Program-made: the position numbers and the translations under genes | NCBI GenBank assembly: GCA_051277005.1 | Contig: JBNMPS010000001.1 | Coordinates: forward strand, 1,337-65,336 | Length of the DNA stretch: 64,000 nucleotides | DNA from: Pseudohongiellaceae bacterium | Lineage (GTDB): Bacteria; Pseudomonadota; Gammaproteobacteria; Pseudomonadales; Dasaniaceae | Direction of reading: 5' to 3' | Notes under the pieces: model-generated | What the model was told of the DNA's origin: nothing | The model's database searches: none | What the model saw: only the letters and a program-made list of their open reading frames with translations | Part shown: positions 3,975 to 49,433 of the stretch, piece by piece | Position numbering within the stretch: the stretch's first letter is position 1 | Layout: each line of letters starts with the position of its first letter

Positions 3975-5984
3975 CTAATCAAATAAGTTCTTTAGGCTGG
4001 AAAGTGTTTGTTTGCCCCGTTCTTTGGCGTTAGAGGCGTCATGCTCTGGGCCACCTTGCCAAACAACATCATCATAGGGTAGCTCATCTAGGAAGCGACT
4101 TGGGGCGCAGTCTAACATTTCGCCAAACTGCTTACGTTTAGCGCAAAGAGTCAGTGTGAGGCTGCGCTTGGCGCGGGTGATACCCACATAACAGAGCCGG
4201 CGCTCTTCTTCAATATTATCCTCTTCAATACTGTTGCGATGGGGCAGTATCTCCTCTTCCATGCCAATAATATAAACGTGAGGAAACTCCAGACCTTTGG
4301 AGGCGTGCAGTGTCATAAGCTGCACTTTACCACTAGCTTCCTCTTCGTCTTCTTGTTGTTCCATAAGGTCACGTAATACCAGCTTGGTGATGGCCGCTTC
4401 GATGCTGTTGTCTTCATCCTCGACTTTTGCCAAGGTATTACCGAGTTGCTCAACGAGGATGCTAACATTATTAAAGCGTTTTTCGGCGGTGGCGCTGCTG
4501 GAGCTATTTTGATGTAGCCAAGCTTCGTAATCGATATCGGCAATCATTTCGCGAATAGCCCAAATGGGGTTTTCACCTTGGCATTGCTCAATGACTTTAT
4601 CAAGCCAATAGGTAAACTCTCGCAAACGTTTAACGCCAGCTTCGCCCACTTGTTGTTCCAGCCCTTGTTCGTGGCAGGCGCTGTACATGCTGATGTCGTG
4701 TAGGGTAGAGAAGGTGCCTAGGCCTTCTAAGGTGGCTGCACCAATTTTGCGTCTTGGGGTGTTGATGATGCGCAAAAAGGCATTGTCATCGTCGGTGTTA
4801 ATAATCAGGCGTAGGTAAGCCATGATGTCTTTGATTTCATGCCGTGAGAAGAAAGAGGTGCCGCCTGATAAATGATAAGGCACTTGGTGGTGTTGCAGCT
4901 TTAGTTCCAATAATCGTGACTGATGGTTGCCCCGATAAAGAATGGCGTAGTCACAAAACTGGGTGCCGTTACATAATTTGTGATCGAGAATCTCGGTGAC
5001 CACGCGCTCGCATTCCACTTCTTCATTACGGCAGCGGACAATACGAATCGGGTCGCCATAGCCCAGCTCACTCCACAGGCTTTTATCAAACACATGAGGG
5101 TTGTGAGCGATTACTTGGTTGGCAGCCTTGAGGATACGGGCAGTAGAGCGGTAATTTTGCTCCAATTTGATAACTTTTAGCGCGGGATAATCAGTTTGCA
5201 GTTGCACCATGTTTTCGGGCCGTGCACCACGCCAAGCGTAGATGGACTGATCGTCGTCGCCCACCACGGTTAACTTGCCGCTATCGCCCACCAGCAGCTT
5301 AACTAACAGATATTGGGTGATGTTGGTATCTTGGTATTCATCTACCAGCATGTAGCGAATTTTGCGCTGCCACTTTTGGAGTATTTCGGTCTCAGCTAAA
5401 AACAGTTGCACGGGTACCAGTATTAAGTCATCAAAGTCGAAGGCGTTGTAGGCTTTAAGGGCGCGCTGATAATGTTCATAAGTAGTGGCGCAAAGTATAT
5501 CGGTGGGGTCGTCGGCTTGTTGCATGGCCTGGGCGGGGCTGACCATGTCATTTTTCCAGTTGGAGATTCTGTGTTGGATGGTGTCGGCTTGGTCAGTATC
5601 GCCTCCGTGCTCTTGCAAGAGCAGGTCTTTGATGAGTGCCTGTCCATCTTGCTGATCAAAAATCGAAAAGCCCGATTTATAACCCAGTGTTTTATGTTCC
5701 TTGCGGATAATGTTCAACCCTAGGTTATGAAAGGTCGACACGGTCAAGCCACGGCTAGCCGGGCCTTTGATCAACTGACCCACACGTTCTTTCATTTCCC
5801 TCGCCGATTTATTGGTAAAGGTCACCGCGGCGATGTTATTGGCACGGTAATTACACTGATTGATTAAGTGGGCAATCTTGCGGACGATGACGCTGGTTTT
5901 ACCACTACCGGCGCCTGCCAGTACGAGTAAGGGGCCGTCTATATAGTCGACGGCTTCGCGTTGTCGGGGGTTGAGTTTAGACAC
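3975..5984 (-). CDS. rep: ATP-dependent DNA helicase Rep
   Basis: The N-terminus LNPRQREAV..GPLLVLAGAGSGKTSVIVRKIAHLI and the UvrD/Rep helicase motifs run throughout. At 669 aa it matches E. coli Rep (673 aa). Confidence 0.95.
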   Translation of the reverse strand: MSKLNPRQREAVDYIDGPLLVLAGAGSGKTSVIVRKIAHLINQCNYRANNIAAVTFTNKSAREMKERVGQLIKGPASRGLTVSTFHNLGLNIIRKEHKTLGYKSGFSIFDQQDGQALIKDLLLQEHGGDTDQADTIQHRISNWKNDMVSPAQAMQQADDPTDILCATTYEHYQRALKAYNAFDFDDLILVPVQLFLAETEILQKWQRKIRYMLVDEYQDTNITQYLLVKLLVGDSGKLTVVGDDDQSIYAWRGARPENMVQLQTDYPALKVIKLEQNYRSTARILKAANQVIAHNPHVFDKSLWSELGYGDPIRIVRCRNEEVECERVVTEILDHKLCNGTQFCDYAILYRGNHQSRLLELKLQHHQVPYHLSGGTSFFSRHEIKDIMAYLRLIINTDDDNAFLRIINTPRRKIGAATLEGLGTFSTLHDISMYSACHEQGLEQQVGEAGVKRLREFTYWLDKVIEQCQGENPIWAIREMIADIDYEAWLHQNSSSSATAEKRFNNVSILVEQLGNTLAKVEDEDNSIEAAITKLVLRDLMEQQEDEEEASGKVQLMTLHASKGLEFPHVYIIGMEEEILPHRNSIEEDNIEEERRLCYVGITRAKRSLTLTLCAKRKQFGEMLDCAPSRFLDELPYDDVVWQGGPEHDASNAKERGKQTLSSLKNLFD

Positions 5985-6195: not shown

Positions 6196-7899
6196 ATGAG
6201 AAATGCCTCAGTACGGATATTGTTAGCCGGTGGTGAACAAAGTCAGTATCAGCTGCTTTTAGAGCAACTGAAGCACATTAAACGTGAGCCTTACCTACTG
6301 GTTTGGCTTGAAGACTTTGACCATGCGGCGCGAGAACTGACGGTCGAGCAATATGATTTGGTGCTGCTTGATTGTCAATCCAGCCCCGAAAGTGCCTTGT
6401 GTTTTCTGACCAACCTCCAGCAAATGTATGCCAAGCCCTGTATCGCTCTGTTCGAACAAGTTGAGAGCGACTTAAGTGTTTTGGCACGAGATTTAGGCGC
6501 AATCGACTGCCTGTCGACTGACAATTTACACGCCAATATTATTGAGCGCTCTTTCCGTTATGCATTGGATCGCGGTGTCGTCGAAAAGAAGCTAACCGAA
6601 TCGCACCTCTATGACCCGCTAACCGGCATTCCCAATCGACAAATGTTCAGGCAGTCGCTGGACACCGCTATCAAACACGCCCAGCAACATAAGAGTCATT
6701 TGGGTTTGTTAGTGATCAATCTCGATGGTTTTAAACGGGTCAATCAGTCTTACAGCATGGATGCCGCTGATGAAATAGTGTGCACTATGGCTCGGCGACT
6801 GTCGCGCTGCATGCGGAAAACCGATAATTTGGCCCGCATGGGTGGCGATGAGTTTGCGCTGCTATTAGATGATAGCCACGGCCCAGATGATGCGGCCTTA
6901 GTGGCCCGTAAAGTTATCGATGCACTCGCGGCGCCTTATATGATTGAGGGTGTGCCTTTAATTGTTAGCTGTAGTATTGGCGTGGCCATGTGCCCCGAAT
7001 CAGGTGAAACGGTAGATGGCTTGCTGAAACGCGCCAATATGGCAATGCAAGAAGCCAAGGCGCTACGTGGTAGCCAGTACCATTTTTTTGACGAACAAAC
7101 TCAGGTCATCGCTCGGCAGCGAGTGAGTTTAGAAAAAGAGTTGCGCAGTGCGCTTCGCACCAATCAATTTGAATTGTATTACCAGCCCCGAGTTGATCTG
7201 GACACCGGTGAAACCGTGGGCATGGAAAGCCTCATTCGCTGGCCGCATCCGGTGCACGGTTTTATTTCACCAGCAGATTTTATTCCCGTAGCGGAAGAGT
7301 GCGGCTTAATTGTTCCTATTGGTTACTGGGTTATTGAGCAAGCTTGTAAGGATATGAAGTGTTTTGATGATAGGGGGAGGGCTAATTTACATGTGGCGGT
7401 GAATATATCTTTTAAGCAACTGCAAGATAATATGTTTGTTGAAACGGCGACGCGTATTATCAAGGCCAGCAAAATTGATCCGTATCGCTTAGAATTTGAA
7501 CTAACAGAAACGGCCATTATGTCGAATTACCAGCAAACCTATGACGGGATGATGGCCTTAAGCCAGCTAGGGATTACTTTTTCATTGGATGATTTTGGGA
7601 CTGGTTTTTCATCTTTTGCTCATATTCAGCGCCTGCCCATTTCAGCGTTAAAAATTGATAGAAGCTTTATTCGTAATGTGACGGAAAATCATGGTGACGC
7701 GGAAATTGTTAAAGCCATGATTAATTTAGCTAATAGCCTAAGCTTAAAAGTCATTGCCGAGGGTGTTGAAACATTAGAGCAAATTCAATTTCTATGGCAT
7801 AACAAGTGTGAGCAGGTACAAGGTTTTTACTTTAGCCCTGCGGTGTGTGTATCTGACTTTAATATGATTATTGATGAGCGCGCGACAGTAACGGCGTAA
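6196..7899 (+). CDS. REC-like/GGDEF/EAL c-di-GMP turnover protein
   Basis: Intact GGDEF motif (MGGDEFALLL). The EAL domain carries ESLIRW, ELTE, DDFGTG, KIDRSF, EGVE and QG. The N-terminal receiver-like fold has LVLLD. Confidence 0.9.
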   Translation: MRNASVRILLAGGEQSQYQLLLEQLKHIKREPYLLVWLEDFDHAARELTVEQYDLVLLDCQSSPESALCFLTNLQQMYAKPCIALFEQVESDLSVLARDLGAIDCLSTDNLHANIIERSFRYALDRGVVEKKLTESHLYDPLTGIPNRQMFRQSLDTAIKHAQQHKSHLGLLVINLDGFKRVNQSYSMDAADEIVCTMARRLSRCMRKTDNLARMGGDEFALLLDDSHGPDDAALVARKVIDALAAPYMIEGVPLIVSCSIGVAMCPESGETVDGLLKRANMAMQEAKALRGSQYHFFDEQTQVIARQRVSLEKELRSALRTNQFELYYQPRVDLDTGETVGMESLIRWPHPVHGFISPADFIPVAEECGLIVPIGYWVIEQACKDMKCFDDRGRANLHVAVNISFKQLQDNMFVETATRIIKASKIDPYRLEFELTETAIMSNYQQTYDGMMALSQLGITFSLDDFGTGFSSFAHIQRLPISALKIDRSFIRNVTENHGDAEIVKAMINLANSLSLKVIAEGVETLEQIQFLWHNKCEQVQGFYFSPAVCVSDFNMIIDERATVTA

Positions 7900-7935: not shown

Positions 7936-8811
7936 ATGAATCAACAAAATCGTAACGCCCCACAGCAATTCCATATCAATATTGTAAATGAAGCTAAGCC
8001 GGTAGAGACACTCGCTTCGGCAACCGGCCTTAGTAAACAAGATATCAAAAAGTGTATGCAGAAGGGCGCTGTATGGCTGAGTAGGGGCGGTGGCACCAAG
8101 CGCCTGCGACGTGCTGACCGAGCCTTAAAGCCACAAGATGAGCTGCATTTATATTACAACCCTGAGGTGTTGAATCAGATTGTCCCCGAGGCAAAGCTAA
8201 TCGCCGATGAGGGCAGCTATAGCATTTGGTACAAACCCTACGGCATGTTATCACAAGGTTCTAAGTGGAGTGACCACTGCACTATCACTCGTTTTGCCGA
8301 ACAACATTTAAGCCCGCAGCGGGCGGTTTTTTTAGTGCATCGCTTGGATAGGGCAACCACGGGGTTAATTATTATTGCGCACAGTAAAAAAATGGCGCAG
8401 TGGTTTAGCTATGCTTTTGAATGCCGAGACATCAGCAAAAAGTATCAGGCGATAGTGATGGGCGATTTCACCCCAATGCCACAGACAAAAACCGTTGATA
8501 TAGAAATAGATGATAAAACCGCACGAAGCCATTTTTTACTTTTGAGGTATAACGCTACGGCGAATATTTCATTATTGGATGTGGATATCGAGACGGGTCG
8601 TAAACATCAAATTCGCAAGCATTTATCTGCGATAGGGTTCCCCATTGTCGGGGATCGATTACACGGGCGTGGTGAGCAGGCGGTTGATTTACAGCTGTGC
8701 GCTTATGAATTACGTTTTGTTTGTGCTGAAAGCCTGCAAGAAAAGAGGTTTTGTTTGCCGCAGAACTTGAACTTAAATTTACAAAAAACGGCAGATCAGT
8801 TAGGCCGCTAA
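7936..8811 (+). CDS. RluA-family pseudouridine synthase
   Basis: Catalytic motif HRLDRATTGLIIIA and the C-terminal GRKHQIRKHL motif. Confidence 0.85.
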   Translation: MNQQNRNAPQQFHINIVNEAKPVETLASATGLSKQDIKKCMQKGAVWLSRGGGTKRLRRADRALKPQDELHLYYNPEVLNQIVPEAKLIADEGSYSIWYKPYGMLSQGSKWSDHCTITRFAEQHLSPQRAVFLVHRLDRATTGLIIIAHSKKMAQWFSYAFECRDISKKYQAIVMGDFTPMPQTKTVDIEIDDKTARSHFLLLRYNATANISLLDVDIETGRKHQIRKHLSAIGFPIVGDRLHGRGEQAVDLQLCAYELRFVCAESLQEKRFCLPQNLNLNLQKTADQLGR

Positions 8812-10072: not shown

Positions 10073-11575
10073 CTATTTTAGACCAGCAAACCCCCGGTAA
10101 CCAATGGCTTCCCCTAGGTGAATGTTATTTATATCGTTACTTTGATCTAGATCAGCAATCGTTCTAGCGACTTTCAAAATTCTAAAATAAGCACGAGGTG
10201 AAAGCTGTAAGCGCTTAGTTGCATCGATTAATAGTTGCTGACTAGCGGGGTTAATTGCACAATATTGTTCAATGGCCTTGCTGCTTAATTGAGCGTTAGT
10301 ACAGGCTTGGCGCTTAAATTGAATGTTACGGCTTGCAATAACGCGCTGTCTAACCGTTTTCGAACTTTCAGCGTTCGTTTTGCTGGCTAATAACTCGGCG
10401 GGCAAGCGGTTAACATTAAGCTGTATGTCAATACGATCTAATAAGGGGCCTGAGATCTTCTCGCGATAACGTCGAATTCTATCAGGTGTACATCGACAGG
10501 CCTGCTCATTATCGCCATAAAAACCACAGGGGCAGGGGTTCATTGCTGCCGCTAATTGAAACCGTGCCGGAAAGCACGTTTGGTGGTTAGCGCGTGAAAT
10601 CATGATTTCCCCGGATTCCATCGGTTCGCGTAACACCTCCAAAACATTGCGTTGAAATTCCGGTAATTCATCTAAAAATAAAATACCGTTATGAGCGAGA
10701 GAAATTTCCCCTGGTTTGGGGTTGCTACCGCCACCGACTAAAGCGACAGCCGATGCGGAATGATGTGGGTTCCTAAACGGCCGCTGCTGTAGCAAGGACT
10801 CTTTTGTACCGTGATGAGCTATGGAATAAAGGCTGGCAACTTCGATACGTTCCTTCTGGCTGAGAGGGGGTAAAATCCCCGGCAGGCGGCTGGCCAGCAT
10901 GGTTTTTCCGGTACCTGGTGGGCCATTTAAAAGAATATTATGTTGGCCTGCAGCGGCAACTTCTAATGCTCGCCGTGCTTGTTGTTGGCCTTTTACATCA
11001 TTCAAGTCGGGGTAAACAATTCCAGTGTTGGATATAGGTTGGTATTGGTGCGGCTGTAATATTTCACGCTGATGTAAATGAGCGCAAAGCTGTAACAAAT
11101 TATCAGCACTGAAAACGGTACTTTGTTCGGCCATGGCCGCTTCATTGGCGTTGTCTTTGGGGACTACAATCGCTCGGTTATTTAGCTGGCTTTGTATTGA
11201 TGCTGCTAACGATCCAGAAACTCTTCTCAATTCGCCGGTTAATGCTAGCTCACCAATAAACTCGGTTTGTTGTAATGATTCCAGAGGTACTTGGCCGGAG
11301 GCTGCAAGAATTCCTAGGGCGATAGGCAGGTCAAAGCGACCGCCTTCTTTGGGTAAATCTGCGGGAGCTAAATTAATCGTGATGCGTCTAGCGGGGAATT
11401 CAAAATGAGAATTAATGATGGCGCTGCGAACGCGATCTTTTGATTCTTTAACGGCAGCTTCAGGCAAACCTACAATGTTGAGTACAGGCAAACCATTAGA
11501 GAGATGAGTTTCAACACTGACCAACGGTGCTTCAATACCGCGCTTGGCTCGGGTGTATACAATGGCTAATGACAT
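10073..11575 (-). CDS. comM: YifB/ComM family Mg-chelatase-like AAA+ ATPase
   Basis: The N-terminus MSLAIVYTRA..GIEAPLVSVE is typical of YifB. It has Walker A GPPGTGKT, a Cys-rich CPCG..C.C insert, and 500 aa. Confidence 0.93.
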   Translation of the reverse strand: MSLAIVYTRAKRGIEAPLVSVETHLSNGLPVLNIVGLPEAAVKESKDRVRSAIINSHFEFPARRITINLAPADLPKEGGRFDLPIALGILAASGQVPLESLQQTEFIGELALTGELRRVSGSLAASIQSQLNNRAIVVPKDNANEAAMAEQSTVFSADNLLQLCAHLHQREILQPHQYQPISNTGIVYPDLNDVKGQQQARRALEVAAAGQHNILLNGPPGTGKTMLASRLPGILPPLSQKERIEVASLYSIAHHGTKESLLQQRPFRNPHHSASAVALVGGGSNPKPGEISLAHNGILFLDELPEFQRNVLEVLREPMESGEIMISRANHQTCFPARFQLAAAMNPCPCGFYGDNEQACRCTPDRIRRYREKISGPLLDRIDIQLNVNRLPAELLASKTNAESSKTVRQRVIASRNIQFKRQACTNAQLSSKAIEQYCAINPASQQLLIDATKRLQLSPRAYFRILKVARTIADLDQSNDINNIHLGEAIGYRGFAGLK

Positions 11576-30420: not shown

Positions 30421-30449
30421 CTGGATGCCGGGTCGTGGCCCGGCAAGAC
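30421..30449 (-). repeat. REP-like palindromic element (inverse orientation)
   Basis: CTGGATGCCGGGTCGTGGCCCGGCAAGAC is a near reverse complement of GTCATGCCGGGCTCGACCCGGTATCCAG (47130-47157). Confidence 0.6.
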
Positions 30450-34500: not shown

Positions 34501-34589
34501 ATGATCGACCATTATTCCGGCAGTGTTTTAGCCGGAACCCAGAGTGTTGCGTGCTAAATCATGACGCTGAGATAGACATAAAGTATCCT

Positions 34590-35624
34590 ATGGCAAACAG
34601 CTTCAAGAAAATCCTAATCGTTGGCCCTTCCTGGGTTGGTGACATGGTGATGGCGCAATCCCTCTTTATTGCCCTCAGGCAAAAACATCCTAATTGCATT
34701 ATTGATGTGTTGGCGCTTGAGTGGAGCCTGCCTATTCTTGAGCGTATGCCAGAAGTCCGCCGTGGCATTGTCATGCCTATTGGGCATGGCAAGCTAGCGC
34801 TAGGGTTACGGCAGCGCTTAGGGCAATCACTAGAGAGTGAGCAATACGACCAAGCCATCGTGTTACCCAATTCCATTAAGTCAGCGTTGATTCCCTTTTT
34901 TGCTGGTATTCCAGAGCGTACGGGCTGGCGTGGCGAGATGCGCTATTTTTTACTTAACGACATCCGCCTACTCAGTAAAAAACGTTATCCCTTAATGGTA
35001 CAGCGATTTTTGGCTTTGGCGCATAAGCCGGGCGCTGAATTACCCGCTGAGTTACCAAAACCCGCTTTACAGGTGAATCAGCAAAACGCCAAAGCGGTAC
35101 TGCAAAAATTTGCATTGGGCGATAAGCCCTTCTTGGCGCTGTGCCCCGGCGCAGAATTTGGTCCCGCCAAGCAGTGGCCTGCTAAACACTATGCGGCGGT
35201 CGCAGAAGACTATATCACCCGTGGCTGGCAAGTGGCCTTGTTTGGTTCTACTAACGATCAGCCAGTGGGGCAAGATATTCGTGGGCAGCTTAGTGCCGAC
35301 GCTCAGCTTCAGTGTTTTAGCTTAGCGGGTGAAACCACGTTAGAAGAAGCGGTAGATGTGTTGTCGCAGGCATCGGCTGTGGTCAGTAATGATTCAGGCC
35401 TAATGCACATTGCCGCCGCATTAGGTAGGCCGATGGCGGTGGTTTACGGATCAACTTCGCCTAAGTTTACACCACCACTCAGTGATAATGTTAAAGTTGA
35501 GCAGCTTGAAGTTGATTGTGGACCGTGTTTTAAGCGTGAATGCCCGCAGGGGCATTTAAAGTGTTTACAAAATTTAGAAGCGAGCCGAGTAATAAAATCA
35601 CTGGACAGCTTATTAGATAATTAG
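34590..35624 (+). CDS. waaF: ADP-heptose:LPS heptosyltransferase II
   Basis: MANSFKKILIVGPSWVGDMVMAQSLF is the GT9 N-terminus. The ATG at 34590 is chosen over the ORF-track start at 34479, which overlaps ilvE. Confidence 0.9.
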   Translation: MANSFKKILIVGPSWVGDMVMAQSLFIALRQKHPNCIIDVLALEWSLPILERMPEVRRGIVMPIGHGKLALGLRQRLGQSLESEQYDQAIVLPNSIKSALIPFFAGIPERTGWRGEMRYFLLNDIRLLSKKRYPLMVQRFLALAHKPGAELPAELPKPALQVNQQNAKAVLQKFALGDKPFLALCPGAEFGPAKQWPAKHYAAVAEDYITRGWQVALFGSTNDQPVGQDIRGQLSADAQLQCFSLAGETTLEEAVDVLSQASAVVSNDSGLMHIAAALGRPMAVVYGSTSPKFTPPLSDNVKVEQLEVDCGPCFKRECPQGHLKCLQNLEASRVIKSLDSLLDN

Positions 35625-35632
35625 CCGTGTTT

Positions 35633-35730
35633 GTCATACCGGTCTTGAACGTCATACCGGCCTTGAGCCGGTATCCAAGAAAAGTTGATCGTCATACCGG
35701 CCTTGAGCCGGTATCCAGGAAAAGTTGGAC
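35633..35730 (+). repeat. REP-like palindromic units in tandem (one partial plus two 40-bp units)
   Basis: GTCATACCGGCCTTGAGCCGGTATCCA(A/G)GAAAAGTTG(A/G)(T/A)C repeated at 35651 and 35691. Each unit contains the inverted repeat ATACCGGC/GCCGGTAT. Confidence 0.85.
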
Positions 35731-35803
35731 GAGAGTTTGGAAGCTGCAGCTAATTGAAAAAGTGAACCCAAATTGGGATGACTTGTGGTTTGATATCATC
35801 TAG
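35731..35803 (+). pseudogene. 3-prime remnant (last 22-23 codons) of a GIY-YIG nuclease gene
   Basis: It translates to (R)VWKLQLIEKVNPNWDDLWFDII*, nearly identical to the C-terminus of the intact gene 400 bp downstream. No upstream coding part is present. Confidence 0.8.
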
Positions 35804-35895
35804 TGATGCTGGATTCCGGGTCAGGCCCGGAATGACAGCTTGATACCGGTATCCAGGAAAGTTGACCGTCATGCCGGCCTTGAGCCGGTATCCAG
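35731..35895 (+). repeat. 165-bp direct repeat, left copy (GIY-YIG tail + inverse REP hairpin + forward REP)
   Basis: Aligns base-for-base with 36133-36297, with about 9 mismatches by eye. Confidence 0.85.
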
Positions 35896-35914
35896 AATAT
35901 AAAAGGAGCCAAGG

Positions 35915-36205
35915 ATGGCGAAGCAATCGGCAGTATATATATTGGCCAGTAAGCGAAATGGCACTTTGTATGTTGGCGTGACCAGTAATTTAGTTCAGCG
36001 CATTTGGCAGCACAGAAACAACGAAGCGGATAGCTTCACAAAAAAACATAGTATACATAGGCTGGTTTATTATGAGCAAACATCCAGCATTACTGCGGCA
36101 ATTGTAAGAGAAAAGAATCTGAAGAACTGGAAGAGAGCCTGGAAGCTGCAGCTAATTGAAAAAGCGAACCCAAATTGGGATGATTTGTGGTTTGATATCA
36201 TCTAG
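35915..36205 (+). CDS. GIY-YIG nuclease family protein (COG2827/URI-domain type, 96 aa)
   Basis: AVYILASKRNGTLYVGVTSNLVQRIWQH...LVYYE...AIVREKNLKNWKRAWKLQLIE..NP.W.DL is the canonical small GIY-YIG family. SD GGAG upstream. Confidence 0.85.
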   Translation: MAKQSAVYILASKRNGTLYVGVTSNLVQRIWQHRNNEADSFTKKHSIHRLVYYEQTSSITAAIVREKNLKNWKRAWKLQLIEKANPNWDDLWFDII

Positions 36206-36297
36206 TGATCCTGGATTCCGGGTCAGGCCCGGAATGACAGCTTGATGCCGGTATCCAGGAAAGTTGACCGTCATGCCAGCTTAGAGCCGGTATCCAG
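36133..36297 (+). repeat. 165-bp direct repeat, right copy
   Basis: See the left copy. It includes the 3-prime end of the intact GIY-YIG gene and the downstream REP pair. Confidence 0.85.
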
Positions 36298-36537
36298 GGA
36301 AAGTTGACCGTCATGCCAGCTTAGAGCCGGTATCCAGGAAAAGTTGATCGTCATACCGGCCTTGAGACGGTATCCAGGAAAAGTTGACCGTCATAACGGC
36401 CTTGAGACGGTATCTAGGAAAAATTGACCGACATACCAGCCTAGGGCCGGTATCCAGGAAAAGTTGACCGTCATACCGGCCTTGAGCCGGTATCCAGGAA
36501 AAGTTGACCGTCATACCGGCCTTGAGCCGGTATCCAG
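36270..36537 (+). repeat. tandem array of 7 REP-like units, exact 40-bp period
   Basis: Units start at 36270, 36310, 36350, 36390, 36430, 36470 and 36510. Consensus GTCATACCGGCCTTGAGCCGGTATCCAGGAAAAGTTGACC. The inter-palindrome 13 nt are conserved too. Confidence 0.9.
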
Positions 36538-36656
36538 AGGCTTGCAGGGTCAGATATTTAATAGCGCTGAACATATTCAGTGCCGATAAACAGAATTGAA
36601 ATTATCTCAGCTGGCATAAATACTATGCTGAACGCTAAAAAAAGGTCATCGCTTAA

Positions 36657-37691
36657 ATGCGCGTACTCGTCATTAAAACATCCTCCATGGGTGATGTCAT
36701 ACACACCCTGCCAGCATTAAACGATGCGGTCAAAGCAATACCCGGTATTCGATTTGACTGGGTTGTAGAAGAGGGTTTTGATGAAATCCCCAGTTGGCAT
36801 CCTGCCGTTGAAGACGTTATCCCGGTTGCTATCCGTCGCTGGCGCAAAAGTATTTTTCAGGCCATGCGCAGCGCCGAGTGGAAACAATGTAAACAAATGT
36901 TGCGCCAGCGCCATTACGATTGTGTGATTGATGCCCAGGGGTTGTTAAAAAGTGCTTGGCTTGCGCGTTACACCCGTGCGCCTCGTTTTGGTTACGACAA
37001 AGAGTCTGTGCGCGAACGTTTAGCGACGTTTGTCTATCATCACAAAATCAATGTGCCTAAAAAACTGCATGCGGTTGAGCGCACTCGGCGTTTGTTTGCC
37101 GAGTCGTTGGGTTATAAGTTGCCGCAACAAAATGGTAATGCTGTTAAGGGTACTTACGGTATCGATAAAAGCCGATTTAAAACCTCAGGTGAGATTCAAC
37201 CCAACATCGTTTTTTTGCACGGGACTACACGCCACAATAAACATTGGCCAGAAGATTACTGGGTGAGCTTGTGTAAAAAAATCTGCGCTCAAGGTTATAA
37301 GGTCTATTTACCTTGGGGTAATGAGGTCGAGCGTAATAGAGCCAAATTTATCGCCCAAAAAACAAACTGTGCTGAAGTATTGCCCAAATTAAATATTCGC
37401 GGAGTTGCCTGTGTGTTGGCTAAAGCGAGTGCCGTCGTGGCGGTTGATACCGGCTTGGGCCATTTAACGGCCGCATTAAATATCCCCGCTATTTCTTTAT
37501 ACGGCACAACCTCACCCGATTTAGTGGGGGCCTACGGTGAGAATCAAATTCATCTTTGCGCTAAAGACTTCCCCGCAGTAAGTGATACCAGTATCGACCC
37601 TTTCGAGATGGCGGCATTAACCCCTGAGATAGTGGCGGATAAATTACTTCCATTGTTGCCCGTTATTTCACAGCCTAAGGTCTTAGGTTAA
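36657..37691 (+). CDS. waaC: ADP-heptose:LPS heptosyltransferase I
   Basis: MRVLVIKTSSMGDVIHTLPALNDA is the GT9 N-terminus. 344 aa. Position after waaF. Confidence 0.9.
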   Translation: MRVLVIKTSSMGDVIHTLPALNDAVKAIPGIRFDWVVEEGFDEIPSWHPAVEDVIPVAIRRWRKSIFQAMRSAEWKQCKQMLRQRHYDCVIDAQGLLKSAWLARYTRAPRFGYDKESVRERLATFVYHHKINVPKKLHAVERTRRLFAESLGYKLPQQNGNAVKGTYGIDKSRFKTSGEIQPNIVFLHGTTRHNKHWPEDYWVSLCKKICAQGYKVYLPWGNEVERNRAKFIAQKTNCAEVLPKLNIRGVACVLAKASAVVAVDTGLGHLTAALNIPAISLYGTTSPDLVGAYGENQIHLCAKDFPAVSDTSIDPFEMAALTPEIVADKLLPLLPVISQPKVLG

Positions 37692-45658: not shown

Positions 45659-45866
45659 GAATGAGCACATGAGTTTAGTGACTATTGTAATCCCCTGCTA
45701 TAACCATCAAGAGTCTGTGGTGGGCGCTGCAGAGAGCGTGCTTGAGCAAGATCATCCGGAGACGCGGAAGCTAACGGTGAGTAAACAGTATGCTGCTGCG
45801 GCAGGTTTTTCGACAGGAAAAACCATAGAGTCCTACAAAAACGATACGTGGAGGTATGTGTCTTAA
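45651..45866 (+). pseudogene. N-terminal fragment of a GT2 glycosyltransferase
   Basis: MSLVTIVIPCYNHQESVVGAAESVLEQDHPE is a canonical GT2 start, but after about 35 residues the sequence loses all GT2 similarity and terminates. waaL begins at its stop. Confidence 0.5.
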
Positions 45867-47068
45867 TGATTGCTGTTAAGGATGGCGTTAGGCATATTGT
45901 AGCCTGTTTTGTTTTTTTTGGTTTACTGGTGTGTTTTTCGTATCCTTCGTTTTTGATACCGGGATCGTCAGTTAAGTTTGCATATTATGCCTTAGTGATA
46001 CTGCCGGGTTTGGTTTTGCTGGGTTTAGATTATCAATGCCTAATAGTAAACGTTAAAAAAAATAAAGGCCTGTATGTATTGTGTCTACTGATGGTGTATT
46101 GGTGCCTAACATTACTATGGGTTGACGACGTGCCAGAAAATTGGGGGGGCAAGTCTAGTCTTATCGGCTCGGAGTTAAGGCGATTACTATCGGTGTTTAT
46201 GTATGTCGTGGTTATTTGGCATGTTGTTACGGTTTATCGGCAGTATGTTGAGCGGTTTCACCGTTTGTTATTGGTTGTTTTTGCTATAGGCATTCTCAAT
46301 TCTTTTTATTCATTATTGGGCATTGATCTTACCGGTGATTTTCGATTGGGGACGGGGAGCGGTTTTAGTCAAGCAATACATGCGGCTCACTACTATGGAT
46401 TTTTCTTTGCCTTGTCGCTAGGCATGATTATTGTGAGCAGGCATCAACCGACAGTCGTTCTGGCGCTTGTTGTGTTTATATTGGCTTTTATAGCGATTAT
46501 TCTGACTAAGTCGAGAGGGGGCTATGTTGCCATAGGGATTACTGTCTTGTCGGCCAGTGCTTATATGGCTGTAATTAGAAAACCTGTCTTAGCGGTAGCG
46601 GTAGCGTTAGCTTTGTTGTTGCTGGGGGGGGCTATGTTTTATCTTTACCCTCAGTTCTTTTTAAATCGAGGGAGTTCTTATCGTTTTGACATATGGCTTG
46701 AAAGCTGGAATATGATTCAGCAGGCTCCTTGGTTTGGTATTGGTTTGGGGGCTCGGCCGCCAGTGTTAGCTCAAGGTTTTGAGCATGCTCATAATCTCTA
46801 TTTATACCAGTGGTTAACGACGGGATTAGTTGGCTTGGTATTGTTTGCTGTATTAGTGCTGGTGGCTATACAGGGCGCAGTAAGCCGGTCTAAGCGGCGG
46901 TCATTGCCCTATATTCTTGCGATGATTTACTTTCTAGCGGCCATGCTGACCGATGTGCAGTATTTAATAAGCTCTCCCAATGAAGCGTGGCTTTGTTTTT
47001 GGTTTTGCTTAGTTTTTTTACTGTCTTTAGAAAAAAAAGACAATGTTGGCCACAAGCCTTTGGGATAA
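45866..47068 (+). CDS. waaL: O-antigen ligase (Wzy_C/WaaL family)
   Basis: About 10-12 TM segments, LTKSRGGYVA, and a periplasmic loop with FEHAHNLYLYQWLTTGLVGL (the H..HN motif of WaaL). Confidence 0.78.
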   Translation: MIAVKDGVRHIVACFVFFGLLVCFSYPSFLIPGSSVKFAYYALVILPGLVLLGLDYQCLIVNVKKNKGLYVLCLLMVYWCLTLLWVDDVPENWGGKSSLIGSELRRLLSVFMYVVVIWHVVTVYRQYVERFHRLLLVVFAIGILNSFYSLLGIDLTGDFRLGTGSGFSQAIHAAHYYGFFFALSLGMIIVSRHQPTVVLALVVFILAFIAIILTKSRGGYVAIGITVLSASAYMAVIRKPVLAVAVALALLLLGGAMFYLYPQFFLNRGSSYRFDIWLESWNMIQQAPWFGIGLGARPPVLAQGFEHAHNLYLYQWLTTGLVGLVLFAVLVLVAIQGAVSRSKRRSLPYILAMIYFLAAMLTDVQYLISSPNEAWLCFWFCLVFLLSLEKKDNVGHKPLG

Positions 47069-47157
47069 ACGCAACGACTGTCTTGCCGGGCTCGACCCGG
47101 TATCCAGATGGGATAAACGCAATAACCGTCATGCCGGGCTCGACCCGGTATCCATAG
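47062..47157 (+). repeat. two 48-bp tandem units, each ending in a REP-like palindrome
   Basis: GGGATAAACGCAA(C/T)(G/A)AC(T/C)GTC(T/A)TGCCGGGCTCGACCCGGTATCCA.. at 47062 and 47110. The first unit contains the waaL stop codon. Confidence 0.85.
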
Positions 47158-47263
47158 GCTCCAACGTTCGTCCGTATGCATCTTAAGTACTGGCCATTAA
47201 AAAATGACTATTTACTCATGCATTATAATGGCGCGTTGAGGATTGTTCGGATATTTCAGTTTT

Positions 47264-47293
47264 CGTGGATACCGGGTCGGGGCCTGGTAAGAC
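47264..47293 (-). repeat. REP-like palindromic element (inverse orientation)
   Basis: CGTGGATACCGGGTCGGGGCCTGGTAAGAC. Confidence 0.55.
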
Positions 47294-47711: not shown

Positions 47712-49433
47712 ATGGTAAAAGAAGAGGCAGCTGAAAGAAAAGCTGATTGGTCGCTAATGGCGCTGGGTCAGATTTTGATCGATCAAAAATCGATACAATC
47801 CAGAGATTTAGAGAAAGCCCTTGTGGTCCAGCAGCAACTGGGTGGGCGGCTAGGAGCTATACTTATTCGCTCCGGCAGTTTGTCAGAAAGCAATTTATTG
47901 GCTGCGCTTAATTTGCAGTTGGGGTTTGAGTTGCTGGATTTCAGTAAATCCTCTTCACCTAGCGATGAAGAGGTCGCTGCCGCTCTTGATTTAACTCGGC
48001 TGAGTGTCGACTGGTTGCTGCAGATGGATACGGTTATTTGGTTGCGTAATGAGCAGCTTTATTGTTTGGCTAAGGACCCGCTGTTGCCATTATTAGATGA
48101 AACGCTGATTGATGCCTGCGCACTCCCCATCCATTATTGTCTTGCCCGTTCTCAGGTGCTCGATAGTTTGCTGGCTAATGTGAAAATAACACAATCTGAG
48201 CAGCAGCTTGATGGCGATATGAACGATGATATTCAACAGCTTCGTGAGCTTGCTGAAGAAGCGCCAGTGATAGAAATGGTCAATAATATTATTTCACAAG
48301 CTTTGGAGGAGCGGGCCTCGGATATCCACGTAGAGCCCGAAGAAGATAGCTTTGATGTTAGGTATCGTATCGATGGCGTTATGGTAGCCAATCGTACTTT
48401 GCCCAAGCAGCGTTATTACGCTATTGCCTCTCGGCTAAAGTTAGTCTCAGGGATTGATATCGCCGAGCGACGCCTGCCTCAAGATGGCCGCATTGGTATG
48501 CGTATAAATGGCCAAGATTTAGATATTCGTGTGTCCTCTTTACCGGGTGTGCACGGTGAGTCAATTGTTATGCGTTTGCTGCCAAAAGAGCGGCAAGACA
48601 TGGTGTTAGATAAGCTGGGGTTTTTGCCCGATCACTTAGTGCTTATGCGCCGCTGGATGTCTCAGTCGCATGGCATTGTTTTAGTGACAGGGCCAACCGG
48701 TTCCGGCAAATCCACAACGTTGTATTCGGCCTTAGATGAATCGAACGATGGCGTAAAGAAAATCATTACCGTTGAAGACCCTGTTGAATTCAGATTGCCT
48801 CATGTTACCCAAGTGCAAGTACACAGTGATATTGGATTAAGTTTTGCGGCGGCATTACGCTCAATTCTTAGGCAAGATCCCGATGTGATTATGATTGGCG
48901 AAATACGTGATTTAGAAACAGCCGAAATTGCGGTGCAATCGGCATTAACAGGACACCTGGTATTATCAACCTTACATACCAACGATGCGATGAGTGCGTT
49001 TAATCGCTTAATTGATATGGGTATTGAGCCATTTTTGGCTGCAACGCCTGTCATTGCTGTGCAGGCTCAGCGATTGGTTAGGCGTTTATGCCCTGCGTGT
49101 TGTGAGCCTGTAGTTGTGCCGGATGACGTTCGCGACGAAGTAGCTCCTTTTGTTTCTCAGCTGTTTCCAGTGGGGAAAGCCAATTGGCAGCAAGCCGTTG
49201 GCTGTGAGCAATGCCAGGATTCGGGTTATCGAGGCCGCTTAGGCATTTATGAATTAATTGATGTTGATGAATCAATACGCGAGCTGGTTATGAGCAGAGC
49301 GTCGTTATCAGCGCTGCAGGCTAAGGCAAAAAGTGAGGGGTATAGAAGCTTTTATACCGACGGATTAATAAAAGCGTGGCAAGGCCTAACCAGTATTGAA
49401 GAGGTGCATCGTGTGGCGAGTCAGCATACATGA
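47712..49433 (+). CDS. gspE: type II secretion ATPase GspE-family with an MshEN-type N-terminal domain
   Basis: Walker A GPTGSGKST, LVLSTLHTNDA, tetracysteine CPACC...CEQC, and an N-terminal tandem 24-residue MshEN motif. Confidence 0.9.
   Translation: MVKEEAAERKADWSLMALGQILIDQKSIQSRDLEKALVVQQQLGGRLGAILIRSGSLSESNLLAALNLQLGFELLDFSKSSSPSDEEVAAALDLTRLSVDWLLQMDTVIWLRNEQLYCLAKDPLLPLLDETLIDACALPIHYCLARSQVLDSLLANVKITQSEQQLDGDMNDDIQQLRELAEEAPVIEMVNNIISQALEERASDIHVEPEEDSFDVRYRIDGVMVANRTLPKQRYYAIASRLKLVSGIDIAERRLPQDGRIGMRINGQDLDIRVSSLPGVHGESIVMRLLPKERQDMVLDKLGFLPDHLVLMRRWMSQSHGIVLVTGPTGSGKSTTLYSALDESNDGVKKIITVEDPVEFRLPHVTQVQVHSDIGLSFAAALRSILRQDPDVIMIGEIRDLETAEIAVQSALTGHLVLSTLHTNDAMSAFNRLIDMGIEPFLAATPVIAVQAQRLVRRLCPACCEPVVVPDDVRDEVAPFVSQLFPVGKANWQQAVGCEQCQDSGYRGRLGIYELIDVDESIRELVMSRASLSALQAKAKSEGYRSFYTDGLIKAWQGLTSIEEVHRVASQHT

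Follow-up and report, generated by a model that had tools for sequence, protein, structure and literature searches.

Ssn proteins are single-domain GIY-YIG enzymes of about 95 amino acids (aa) that are paired with repeats termed NTS or SRM, in which a CGTCAT head is followed by stem, loop, stem and an ATCC tail (Chenal et al., Nat Commun 2025, PMC11893778). SsnA of Neisseria meningitidis (94 aa) binds the NTS repeat CGTCATTCCCGCGMAVGCGGGAATCYRG solely as single-stranded DNA (ssDNA) and in the forward orientation, with the cut falling a few nucleotides 5' of the hairpin; duplex DNA and RNA are left untouched, RNA is not bound, and Y6A, Y17A or E64A abolishes activity (PMC11893778). Deletion of ssnA raises transformation by NTS-containing DNA about five-fold, and in vitro cleavage of the hairpin as ssDNA has been shown for four homologues (PMC11893778). 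The subject here is a stretch of 64,000 nucleotides from a Pseudohongiellaceae bacterium (GenBank assembly GCA_051277005.1, contig JBNMPS010000001.1, positions 1,337 to 65,336 of the forward strand), referred to as the window, in which the interval between the heptosyltransferase genes waaF and waaC holds a GIY-YIG gene, ssn, set among hairpin repeats. This locus is considered, with a probability of roughly 0.85, to be an Ssn/SRM module consisting of a 96-aa nuclease of the Ssn family (cd10448) and its cognate CGTC-tagged hairpins, carried in a block that was gained and then rearranged.

Membership of the Ssn family was drawn in the published survey by homology to N. meningitidis SsnA at E < 1e-10, and an Ssn-related motif was found near 71% of homologues and on both sides of 42% (PMC11893778). 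The discussion of that paper likens NTS-ssnA-NTS to an insertion sequence (IS) and proposes domestication; propagation is raised as a hypothesis, no mobility is shown, and the text neither mentions terminal inverted repeats or target sites nor cites Di Nocera et al. (PMC11893778). The latter authors described CGTC-tagged repetitive extragenic palindromes (REPs) that “apparently lack a dedicated transposase”, none adjoining them in any species; head-to-tail dimers are negligible and clusters rare among these repeats, and the term GIY-YIG has no occurrence in the text (Di Nocera, De Gregorio, Rocco, BMC Genomics 2013, PMC3733652).

The window locus shares with the Ssn/NTS-SRM system a single-domain GIY-YIG protein of ~95 aa with the same catalytic spacing, a gene bracketed by oriented hairpins, and repeats that occur in arrays and as dispersed copies; in its ATAC stem start and 5-nt loop, the window unit is similar to the variant repeat NTSvar CGTCATACTCGGGNNNNNCCCGAGTATC (PMC11893778). 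Unlike the published cases, the locus belongs to an uncultured marine gammaproteobacterium (among named organisms, the closest WaaC homologues, at about 60% identity, are those of Cellvibrionales and Endozoicomonas) and has a repeat that escapes the published SRM search string, two stem types and a truncated second gene copy. With the CGTC-tagged REPs (PMC3733652) it has in common the CGTC head, the 8-bp stem beginning AT, the 5-nt loop, the CCA tail and the lack of a nearby transposase, whereas its units stand in head-to-tail arrays of two and seven. REP-associated tyrosine transposases (RAYTs) with their REPs or REPINs, and TnpA of IS200/IS605, likewise present a small lone gene bracketed by hairpins that are recognized as ssDNA, with repeats outnumbering the gene; however, Ssn is a GIY-YIG hydrolase rather than an HUH tyrosine transposase, the tag is CGTC rather than GTAG, and no covalent intermediate or strand transfer is known for Ssn. 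A RAYT/REPIN assignment of the locus was rejected because the flanked gene is GIY-YIG and the tag CGTC. Homing endonucleases of the I-TevI type and UPF0213/YhbQ proteins resemble Ssn in the catalytic fold. Since the head, hairpin and tail, which are important in published mutagenesis, are all kept and the unit resembles NTSvar, the locus is best filed as an Ssn member with a variant repeat; the link between gene and repeat is itself a published result of 2025.

The GIY-YIG protein of the window

The product of ssn matches the Pfam GIY-YIG family PF01541 at E 1.4e-14 and 54.6 bits (cut-off 22.6) over residues 6-78, and 40-bp repeat units stand on both sides of the gene, in keeping with an earlier note on this DNA which had described an intact 96-aa GIY-YIG gene among palindromic repeats. 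A search of 5.8 billion proteins returned 4,982 relatives; the best non-self matches, drawn from many phyla, are 61-72% identical along all ~96 residues, and homologues of ~96 aa at 57-72% identity number in the thousands across phyla. An alignment of 26 homologues shows six invariant residues (Y8, Y19, G21, R29, H33 and E66) and an equally invariant C-terminal motif, W-x-R-x-WK-xx-LIE-xx-NP-x-W-x-D. The spacing of Y8/Y19/E66 (11 and 47 residues) equals that of Y6/Y17/E64 in N. meningitidis SsnA, the residues being matched by spacing and not by direct alignment. The AlphaFold model is one compact domain (pLDDT 89.7), and its best fold matches in the PDB are GIY-YIG proteins, namely UPF0213 BH0048 (1ZG2), the UvrC N-terminal domain and Slx1. 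The length of 96 aa (family about 94-100), the single domain, the catalytic residues and the oriented hairpins on both sides are all features of the Ssn family. N. meningitidis SsnA is not among the top matches of the protein search; a homologue from Neisseria sp., flanked by 14 hairpins, is 59% identical to the window protein (E 9e-46).

Other assignments of the protein were rejected. Identity to the UPF0213 structure 1ZG2 is only 26% (E 0.01), which speaks against UPF0213/YhbQ membership; with the group-I-intron GIY-YIG endonuclease model TIGR01453, the score of 21.6 bits stays below the cut-off of 56; and a GIY-YIG homing endonuclease is dismissed, as the protein is single-domain with neither a DNA-binding domain nor an intron context. 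Membership of a defence system was discarded as well, the PADLOC matches being sub-threshold and confined to the shared nuclease motif. No NCBIfam model passes its cut-off for the window protein, and no PHROG family matches it.

By analogy with the four assayed homologues, the protein would bind its hairpin only when single-stranded and on the forward (CGTCAT-first) strand, ignoring duplex DNA and RNA, and would cut a few nucleotides upstream of the CGTCAT head by means of a Tyr/Tyr/Glu centre (Y8, Y19, E66) and Mg2+. Its substrates in the cell may be incoming transforming DNA, or DNA exposed in replication and repair; the enzyme would trim such incoming or exposed single strands where they bear repeats, and would thereby affect recombination around the repeats.

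Hairpin repeats and organization of the locus

The repeat unit reads CGTC-AT-ACCGGC-CTTGA-GCCGGT-AT-CCA followed by a spacer of ~10 nt, that is, an oriented head, an 8-bp stem beginning AT, a 5-nt loop and a CCA tail. It thus has the properties of a CGTC-tagged REP (CGTC or TGTC head, AT-first stem of 8-9 bp, 4-5-nt loop, CCA tail), and it retains the CGTCAT head, hairpin and ATCC tail of the published system while its stem composition departs from the SRM string. A forward unit of the pair at 35649..35728 is predicted to fold as ssDNA at -8.4 kcal/mol (z -3.7). A second stem type, which on its own strand reads TGTC-AT-TCCGGG-CCTGA-CCCGGA-AT-CCA, is inverse and adjoins both gene copies on their 3' side; for the inverse repeat at 36208..36240 the predicted minus-strand ssDNA fold is -10 kcal/mol (z -3.45). 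The block and its neighbours are laid out as follows.

34584..35624, + strand: waaF-like heptosyltransferase (GT9), left neighbour of the block (Pfam PF01075, E 1.3e-75)
35633..35648, + strand: partial hairpin repeat with only head, left arm and loop (GTCATACCGGTCTTGA), read from the sequence
35649..35728, + strand: two complete 40-bp forward units, CGTCAT-ATACCGGC-CTTGA-GCCGGTAT-CCA (SRM / CGTC-tagged REP)
35720..35803, + strand: truncated second copy of ssn that retains just the 3' end, residues 70-96 and stop (tblastn E 1e-12)
35806..35838, - strand: inverse hairpin repeat of the second stem type (ATTCCGGG; minus-strand loop CCTGA)
35839..35864, + strand: partial unit with loop, right arm, tail and spacer (CTTGATACCGGTATCCAGGAAAGTTG)
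35865..35897, + strand: forward hairpin repeat directly 5' of ssn, ending 20 nt before the ATG
35915..36205, + strand: ssn, intact gene for a 96-aa single-domain GIY-YIG nuclease (Pfam PF01541)
36208..36240, - strand: inverse hairpin repeat, beginning 3 nt past the ssn stop
36241..36266, + strand: partial unit, second copy (CTTGATGCCGGTATCCAGGAAAGTTG)
36267..36537, + strand: array of seven forward 40-bp hairpin units, stems degenerate in some
36538..36656, + strand: non-repeat spacer before waaC, of which only the last ~20 bp is present in relatives
36657..37691, + strand: waaC-like heptosyltransferase I (GT9), right neighbour (Pfam E 9.5e-63); homologues of its product carry the name lipopolysaccharide heptosyltransferase I

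A ribosome-binding site (AAAAGGAG) lies between the forward repeat 35865..35897 and the ssn ATG. The inverse/forward hairpin pair stands after the truncated copy and after intact ssn alike, and seven further units follow, so that this part of the earlier description holds throughout. Tandem Repeats Finder places 2.2 copies of the 40-bp unit at 35645-35731 and a further 7.4 at 36241-36537. Direct repeats about 95% identical and 402 bp apart had been noted between 35731-35895 and 36133-36297; the measured value is 156 of 165 positions (94.5%) at the same 402-bp spacing, and the repeat extends to 177 nt (35719-35895 and 36121-36297, 93% identity, 402 bp apart). The truncated gene copy is likewise present, although longer than the 22-23 codons first ascribed to it: it comprises the last 27 codons and stop of ssn, and 76 of its 84 nt match the intact copy.

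The 28-nt core of the unit has seven matches at three or fewer mismatches, against none in 100 shuffles. Only three metagenome contigs carry the window protein. Two more metagenome assemblies, from other samples (L001 and L002), contain the identical ssn together with the truncated copy, and their units, each diverged in its own way, follow in the same order; because the two assemblies share this arrangement, it is not an assembly accident, and an assembly artefact is an unlikely source of it. L001 and L002 each lack one 40-bp unit, a different one in each. The second upstream unit of L002 (59-79) reads ATACCAGCCTAGAGCTGGTAT where the window has ATACCGGCCTTGAGCCGGTAT (35694-35714); one stem pair is altered on both arms from G-C to A-T, and the hairpin is preserved.

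Association of ssn with hairpins in other genomes

Relatives of the window protein were taken from more than 596 matches in 185,579 species genomes, giving 80 loci whose proteins are 55-67% identical to the query; the phyla represented include Proteobacteria, Chloroflexi, Planctomycetes, Cyanobacteria, Patescibacteria and Bipolaricaulota. Hairpins were located with a strict detector that demands an AT-initiated, GC-rich stem of 8-9 bp, a loop of 4-6 nt and a tag of GTC or GAC; applied to the 64-kb window, it matches the known repeat sites and nothing else. At least one hairpin lies within 150 bp of the gene in 63 of the 80 loci (79%), and both sides are occupied in 45 (56%). Hairpin density is 6.05/kb within 150 bp of the gene and 0.115/kb in the other 1.19 Mb of these 80 loci, a 52-fold difference. 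In the commonest layout a forward copy stands 11-21 nt before the gene and an inverse one follows its stop by about 5 nt; the window is arranged alike, the detector placing its downstream inverse repeat at +5, a position that recurs in many of the loci. When the published SRM string, HGTCWYN(0-2)YYVSBRHN(0-5)WNVSBRGN(0-2)RNCYNB, is used instead, it matches 61 of the 80 loci, with 76% having at least one match nearby and 44% having matches on both sides; the string is a hand-made degenerate search pattern and not a definition of the family. A Desulfobacterales metagenome-assembled genome (MAG), L065, has a 57-nt exact direct repeat flanking ssn (7466-7522 and 7988-8044), a further case of duplicated flanks around the gene; its hairpin stem (ATTCCGGG) equals the gene-proximal copy of the window.

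Anchoring on the repeat gives a different picture. The exact window repeat occurs on at least 120 metagenome contigs, none of the 80 compared (L088-L167) coming from the organism of the window; these 80 repeat-anchored loci hold 173 hairpins, and an ssn relative is encoded in one of them. Repeats far outnumber ssn genes, but most ssn genes adjoin repeats. The earlier note had suggested enrichment of GIY-YIG genes beside the repeats as a test, which points in the wrong direction given one ssn among 80 repeat-anchored loci, yet hairpins beside most ssn genes. Its idea that the protein acts on the repeats is borne out by the 52-fold association and by cleavage of the hairpin by four homologues; the accompanying idea of propagation is still at the stage of hypothesis.

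History of the waaF-waaC block

Relatives found through WaaC keep the order glnE-ilvE-waaF-waaC-GT4 and do not have the block. The waaF-waaC gap of 1,032 bp (35625-36656) compares with 26 bp in L083 and L084 (85% WaaC identity) and 27 bp in L085 (81%), and in L086 (65%) the two genes overlap; the junction is thus normally tight, as had been supposed, and the empty-site comparison that the earlier note proposed finds the closest relatives without the block. Because these junctions are empty, the block was gained in the lineage of the window. The last ~20 bp before the waaC start are similar to the ancestral spacer, so that the inserted block spans roughly 35625 to roughly 36635. Of this block ~95 bp are unique, and within them a promoter-like TTGAAA-17-AATACT, identified by consensus match only, stands at 36596-36624, 33 bp before the waaC start; this site could compensate for disrupted waaF-waaC coupling.

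The internal duplication can be accounted for by three steps. Unequal recombination between the direct forward repeats that flank ssn (35865 and 36267) would have generated a 402-bp tandem duplication of gene, inverse repeat and partial unit; a deletion at an 11-nt microhomology between repeat spacer and gene would then have removed the first 69 codons, or first two thirds, of the upstream copy; and slippage would continually alter the number of 40-bp units. The 5' junction of the truncated copy overlaps the repeat spacer at the microhomology GAAnAnnTGGA (spacer GAAAAGTTGGA, gene GAAGAACTGGA). Repeated insertion, invoked in the earlier note for the truncated duplicate, is not needed, as recombination and microhomology deletion would suffice. 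A truncated ssn fragment was found in none of the 80 other homologous loci, and such fragments as a family trait are thereby ruled out.

The block also contains one 5' half-repeat that ends in CTTGA (35633-35648) and two 3' half-repeats that start with CTTGA (35839 and 36241); the segments between the half-repeats end in two nucleotides and GTCAT on each strand. From the sequence of this one locus, it is possible that the half-repeats derive from a single repeat split at its CTTGA loop, as an insertion with a 5-nt duplication would leave.

Repeat-ssn-repeat units with defined ends

In one deltaproteobacterial MAG, two ssn copies (L011:9902-10389 and L016:9902-10416) are 91% identical across ~490-515 bp with sharp ends. 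Each unit terminates in perfect 16-bp inverted repeats, ATAAGCGCTAACTTAA and TTAAGTTAGCGCTTAT, placed outside the hairpins, and the same unit ends are found in a Bipolaricaulota genome, L019 (a 478-bp unit around 5054-5344), with variants of the ends in L014, L026, L038 and L052. G-rich direct repeats of 11-13 bp flank the units in the manner of target duplications: CCCCCAGCCCC in L011, GGGGTTGGRAGGG in L016 and GGGGCTGGAGCYC in L019. The 91%-identical copies, inverted ends and flanking direct repeats of L011, L016 and L019 therefore argue that such units move. The window has no outer terminal inverted repeats of the kind seen in L011.

Within the loop of its downstream hairpin (~10300-10330), L016 has a palindromic insert of 27 nt that is not in the L011 copy (alignment columns 459-485), and the upstream hairpins of L011 and L016 both contain this insert. 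It seems that a second small palindromic element inserts into hairpin loops.

Alternative explanations

Several points weigh against reading the locus as an Ssn/SRM module with a rearranged block. The published SRM string has no match in the window; the tie to the assayed SsnA of N. meningitidis is indirect, running through the Neisseria sp. homologue, and the activity ascribed to the window protein is taken from the assayed homologues. The source genome is known from this one contig, to which counts of repeats and of ssn are limited; differences in 40-bp copy number among short-read assemblies may reflect assembly collapse; and the history of recombination and deletion is a reconstruction from sequence. 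That the duplication and arrays are chance similarity or short-read mis-assembly is nevertheless barely credible: tandem 40-bp repeats are difficult to assemble and the number of units does differ between L001 and L002, but shuffled sequence gives no match to the 28-nt unit, and three independent assemblies agree on gene, truncated copy and the order of units with their own substitutions. The GIY-YIG gene might instead be an unrelated passenger among ordinary REPs or REPINs moved by a RAYT encoded elsewhere, as would suit the classical association of REP arrays with RAYTs and the position of most copies of the window repeat away from ssn. This is very improbable: RAYT systems recognize GTAG whereas the head here is CGTC, Di Nocera et al. 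saw no transposase beside CGTC repeats in any species, and neither the 52-fold enrichment at ssn across phyla nor the fixed forward/inverse bracket is a coincidence. An account in which the repeats act chiefly at the RNA level in the waa operon, as terminators, mRNA stabilizers or insulators, with the link to ssn confined to control of its expression, draws on the uniform orientation of the array units with the operon, on REPs as known 3'-untranslated-region elements, and on Chenal et al. having first considered regulation (PMC11893778). As the chief explanation it is improbable: the hairpins lack a following T-tract on the + strand, and matches resembling terminators are confined to the - strand; no Rfam family matches; SsnA does not bind RNA (PMC11893778); and relatives do without the block. 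A role at the RNA level is in any case compatible with an Ssn/SRM module.

It has also to be asked whether repeat-ssn-repeat is an active mobile element, which Ssn moves and with which it seeds repeats, either through homing-like repair after cutting repeats elsewhere or through excision and insertion, the window then recording an insertion into the loop of a repeat that was already there. The empty sites in relatives are in favour of this, as are the one repeat apparently split with CTTGA on both sides, the related ~480-515-bp units whose sole open reading frame is ssn and which end in perfect 16-bp inverted repeats with direct repeats of 11-13 bp beside them, and the IS-like layout remarked upon in PMC11893778. 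Flanking direct repeats of at least 15 nt are found in 8 of 77 loci and in none of 1,540 controls, although many of these long repeats are unmasked repeat variants. However, GIY-YIG enzymes are DNA hydrolases for which no strand joining is known, and the assayed Ssn proteins cut upstream of the hairpin rather than in its loop; the window lacks the terminal inverted repeats, which in the other loci stand outside the hairpins, so that another transposase could move those units in trans. Furthermore, ssn is usually single-copy per locus, and the split repeat is read from one locus. Mobility driven by Ssn is for these reasons rather unlikely, and the Ssn/SRM module that was gained and then rearranged by recombination and deletion is the preferred explanation.

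Other hairpins in the window

The window contains 16 complete hairpins, 12 at the ssn locus and four elsewhere (30425, 47083, 47131 and 47269), the latter at two sites.

30423..30449, - strand: isolated hairpin repeat upstream of glnE
47061..47293, intergenic: second small cluster of this repeat kind, two forward copies with a 48-bp period plus an inverse hairpin ~120 bp off

The relative L083, in which the waaF-waaC block is absent, also has an inverse hairpin upstream of glnE (110-129, - strand), and the repeat family is therefore older than the insertion of the block. The stems of the glnE-upstream hairpins differ between the window and L083; the site accordingly predates the insertion and has diverged by paired changes. 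The stem of the cluster at 47061-47293 is different again (ATGCCGGG/CCCGGTAT); the cluster lies between the open reading frames 45848-47068 and 47712-49433, and there is no ssn gene near it.

Twelve of the 16 hairpins are on the + strand, and GC skew is positive in every 4-kb block of the window (1-64000). By the usual rule, the leading strand has more G than C. If this rule holds here, the + strand of this one contig would serve as template for the lagging strand, on which hairpins can extrude; the orientation of so small a sample as 16 hairpins would then be weakly consistent with a preference for that template.

Significance

The earlier note's guess of a tiny GIY-YIG nuclease linked with its own palindromic repeats is real, and was shown experimentally in 2025; its accompanying statement that the association had no established mechanism has been overtaken by publication of the Ssn/SRM system (PMC11893778). 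As both the Ssn link and the cleavage are already published, the locus opens no new field; what it adds are its particulars, namely an occupied junction with its empty counterparts, a variant repeat which the search string misses, and a truncated duplicate that is not typical of the family. Since the SRM string misses real variants such as the window repeat, the published 71% association is probably an underestimate. Every further pair of Ssn and repeat is a candidate sequence-specific ssDNA cutter for laboratory use.

The window connects the Ssn literature with the older finding of CGTC-tagged REPs that have no transposase, and the comparison of occupied and empty states at a conserved operon junction bears on whether the units move. 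It is conceivable, though we regard it as distinctly unlikely, that repeat-ssn-repeat units represent a new kind of (semi-)autonomous mobile element in which a hydrolytic GIY-YIG ssDNA nuclease is the only protein; if so, the insertion at the waaF-waaC junction with its split repeat and the ~0.5-kb units with inverted ends would be the first traces of such mobility, and the CGTC-tagged REP superfamily would have in Ssn its missing enzyme of propagation.

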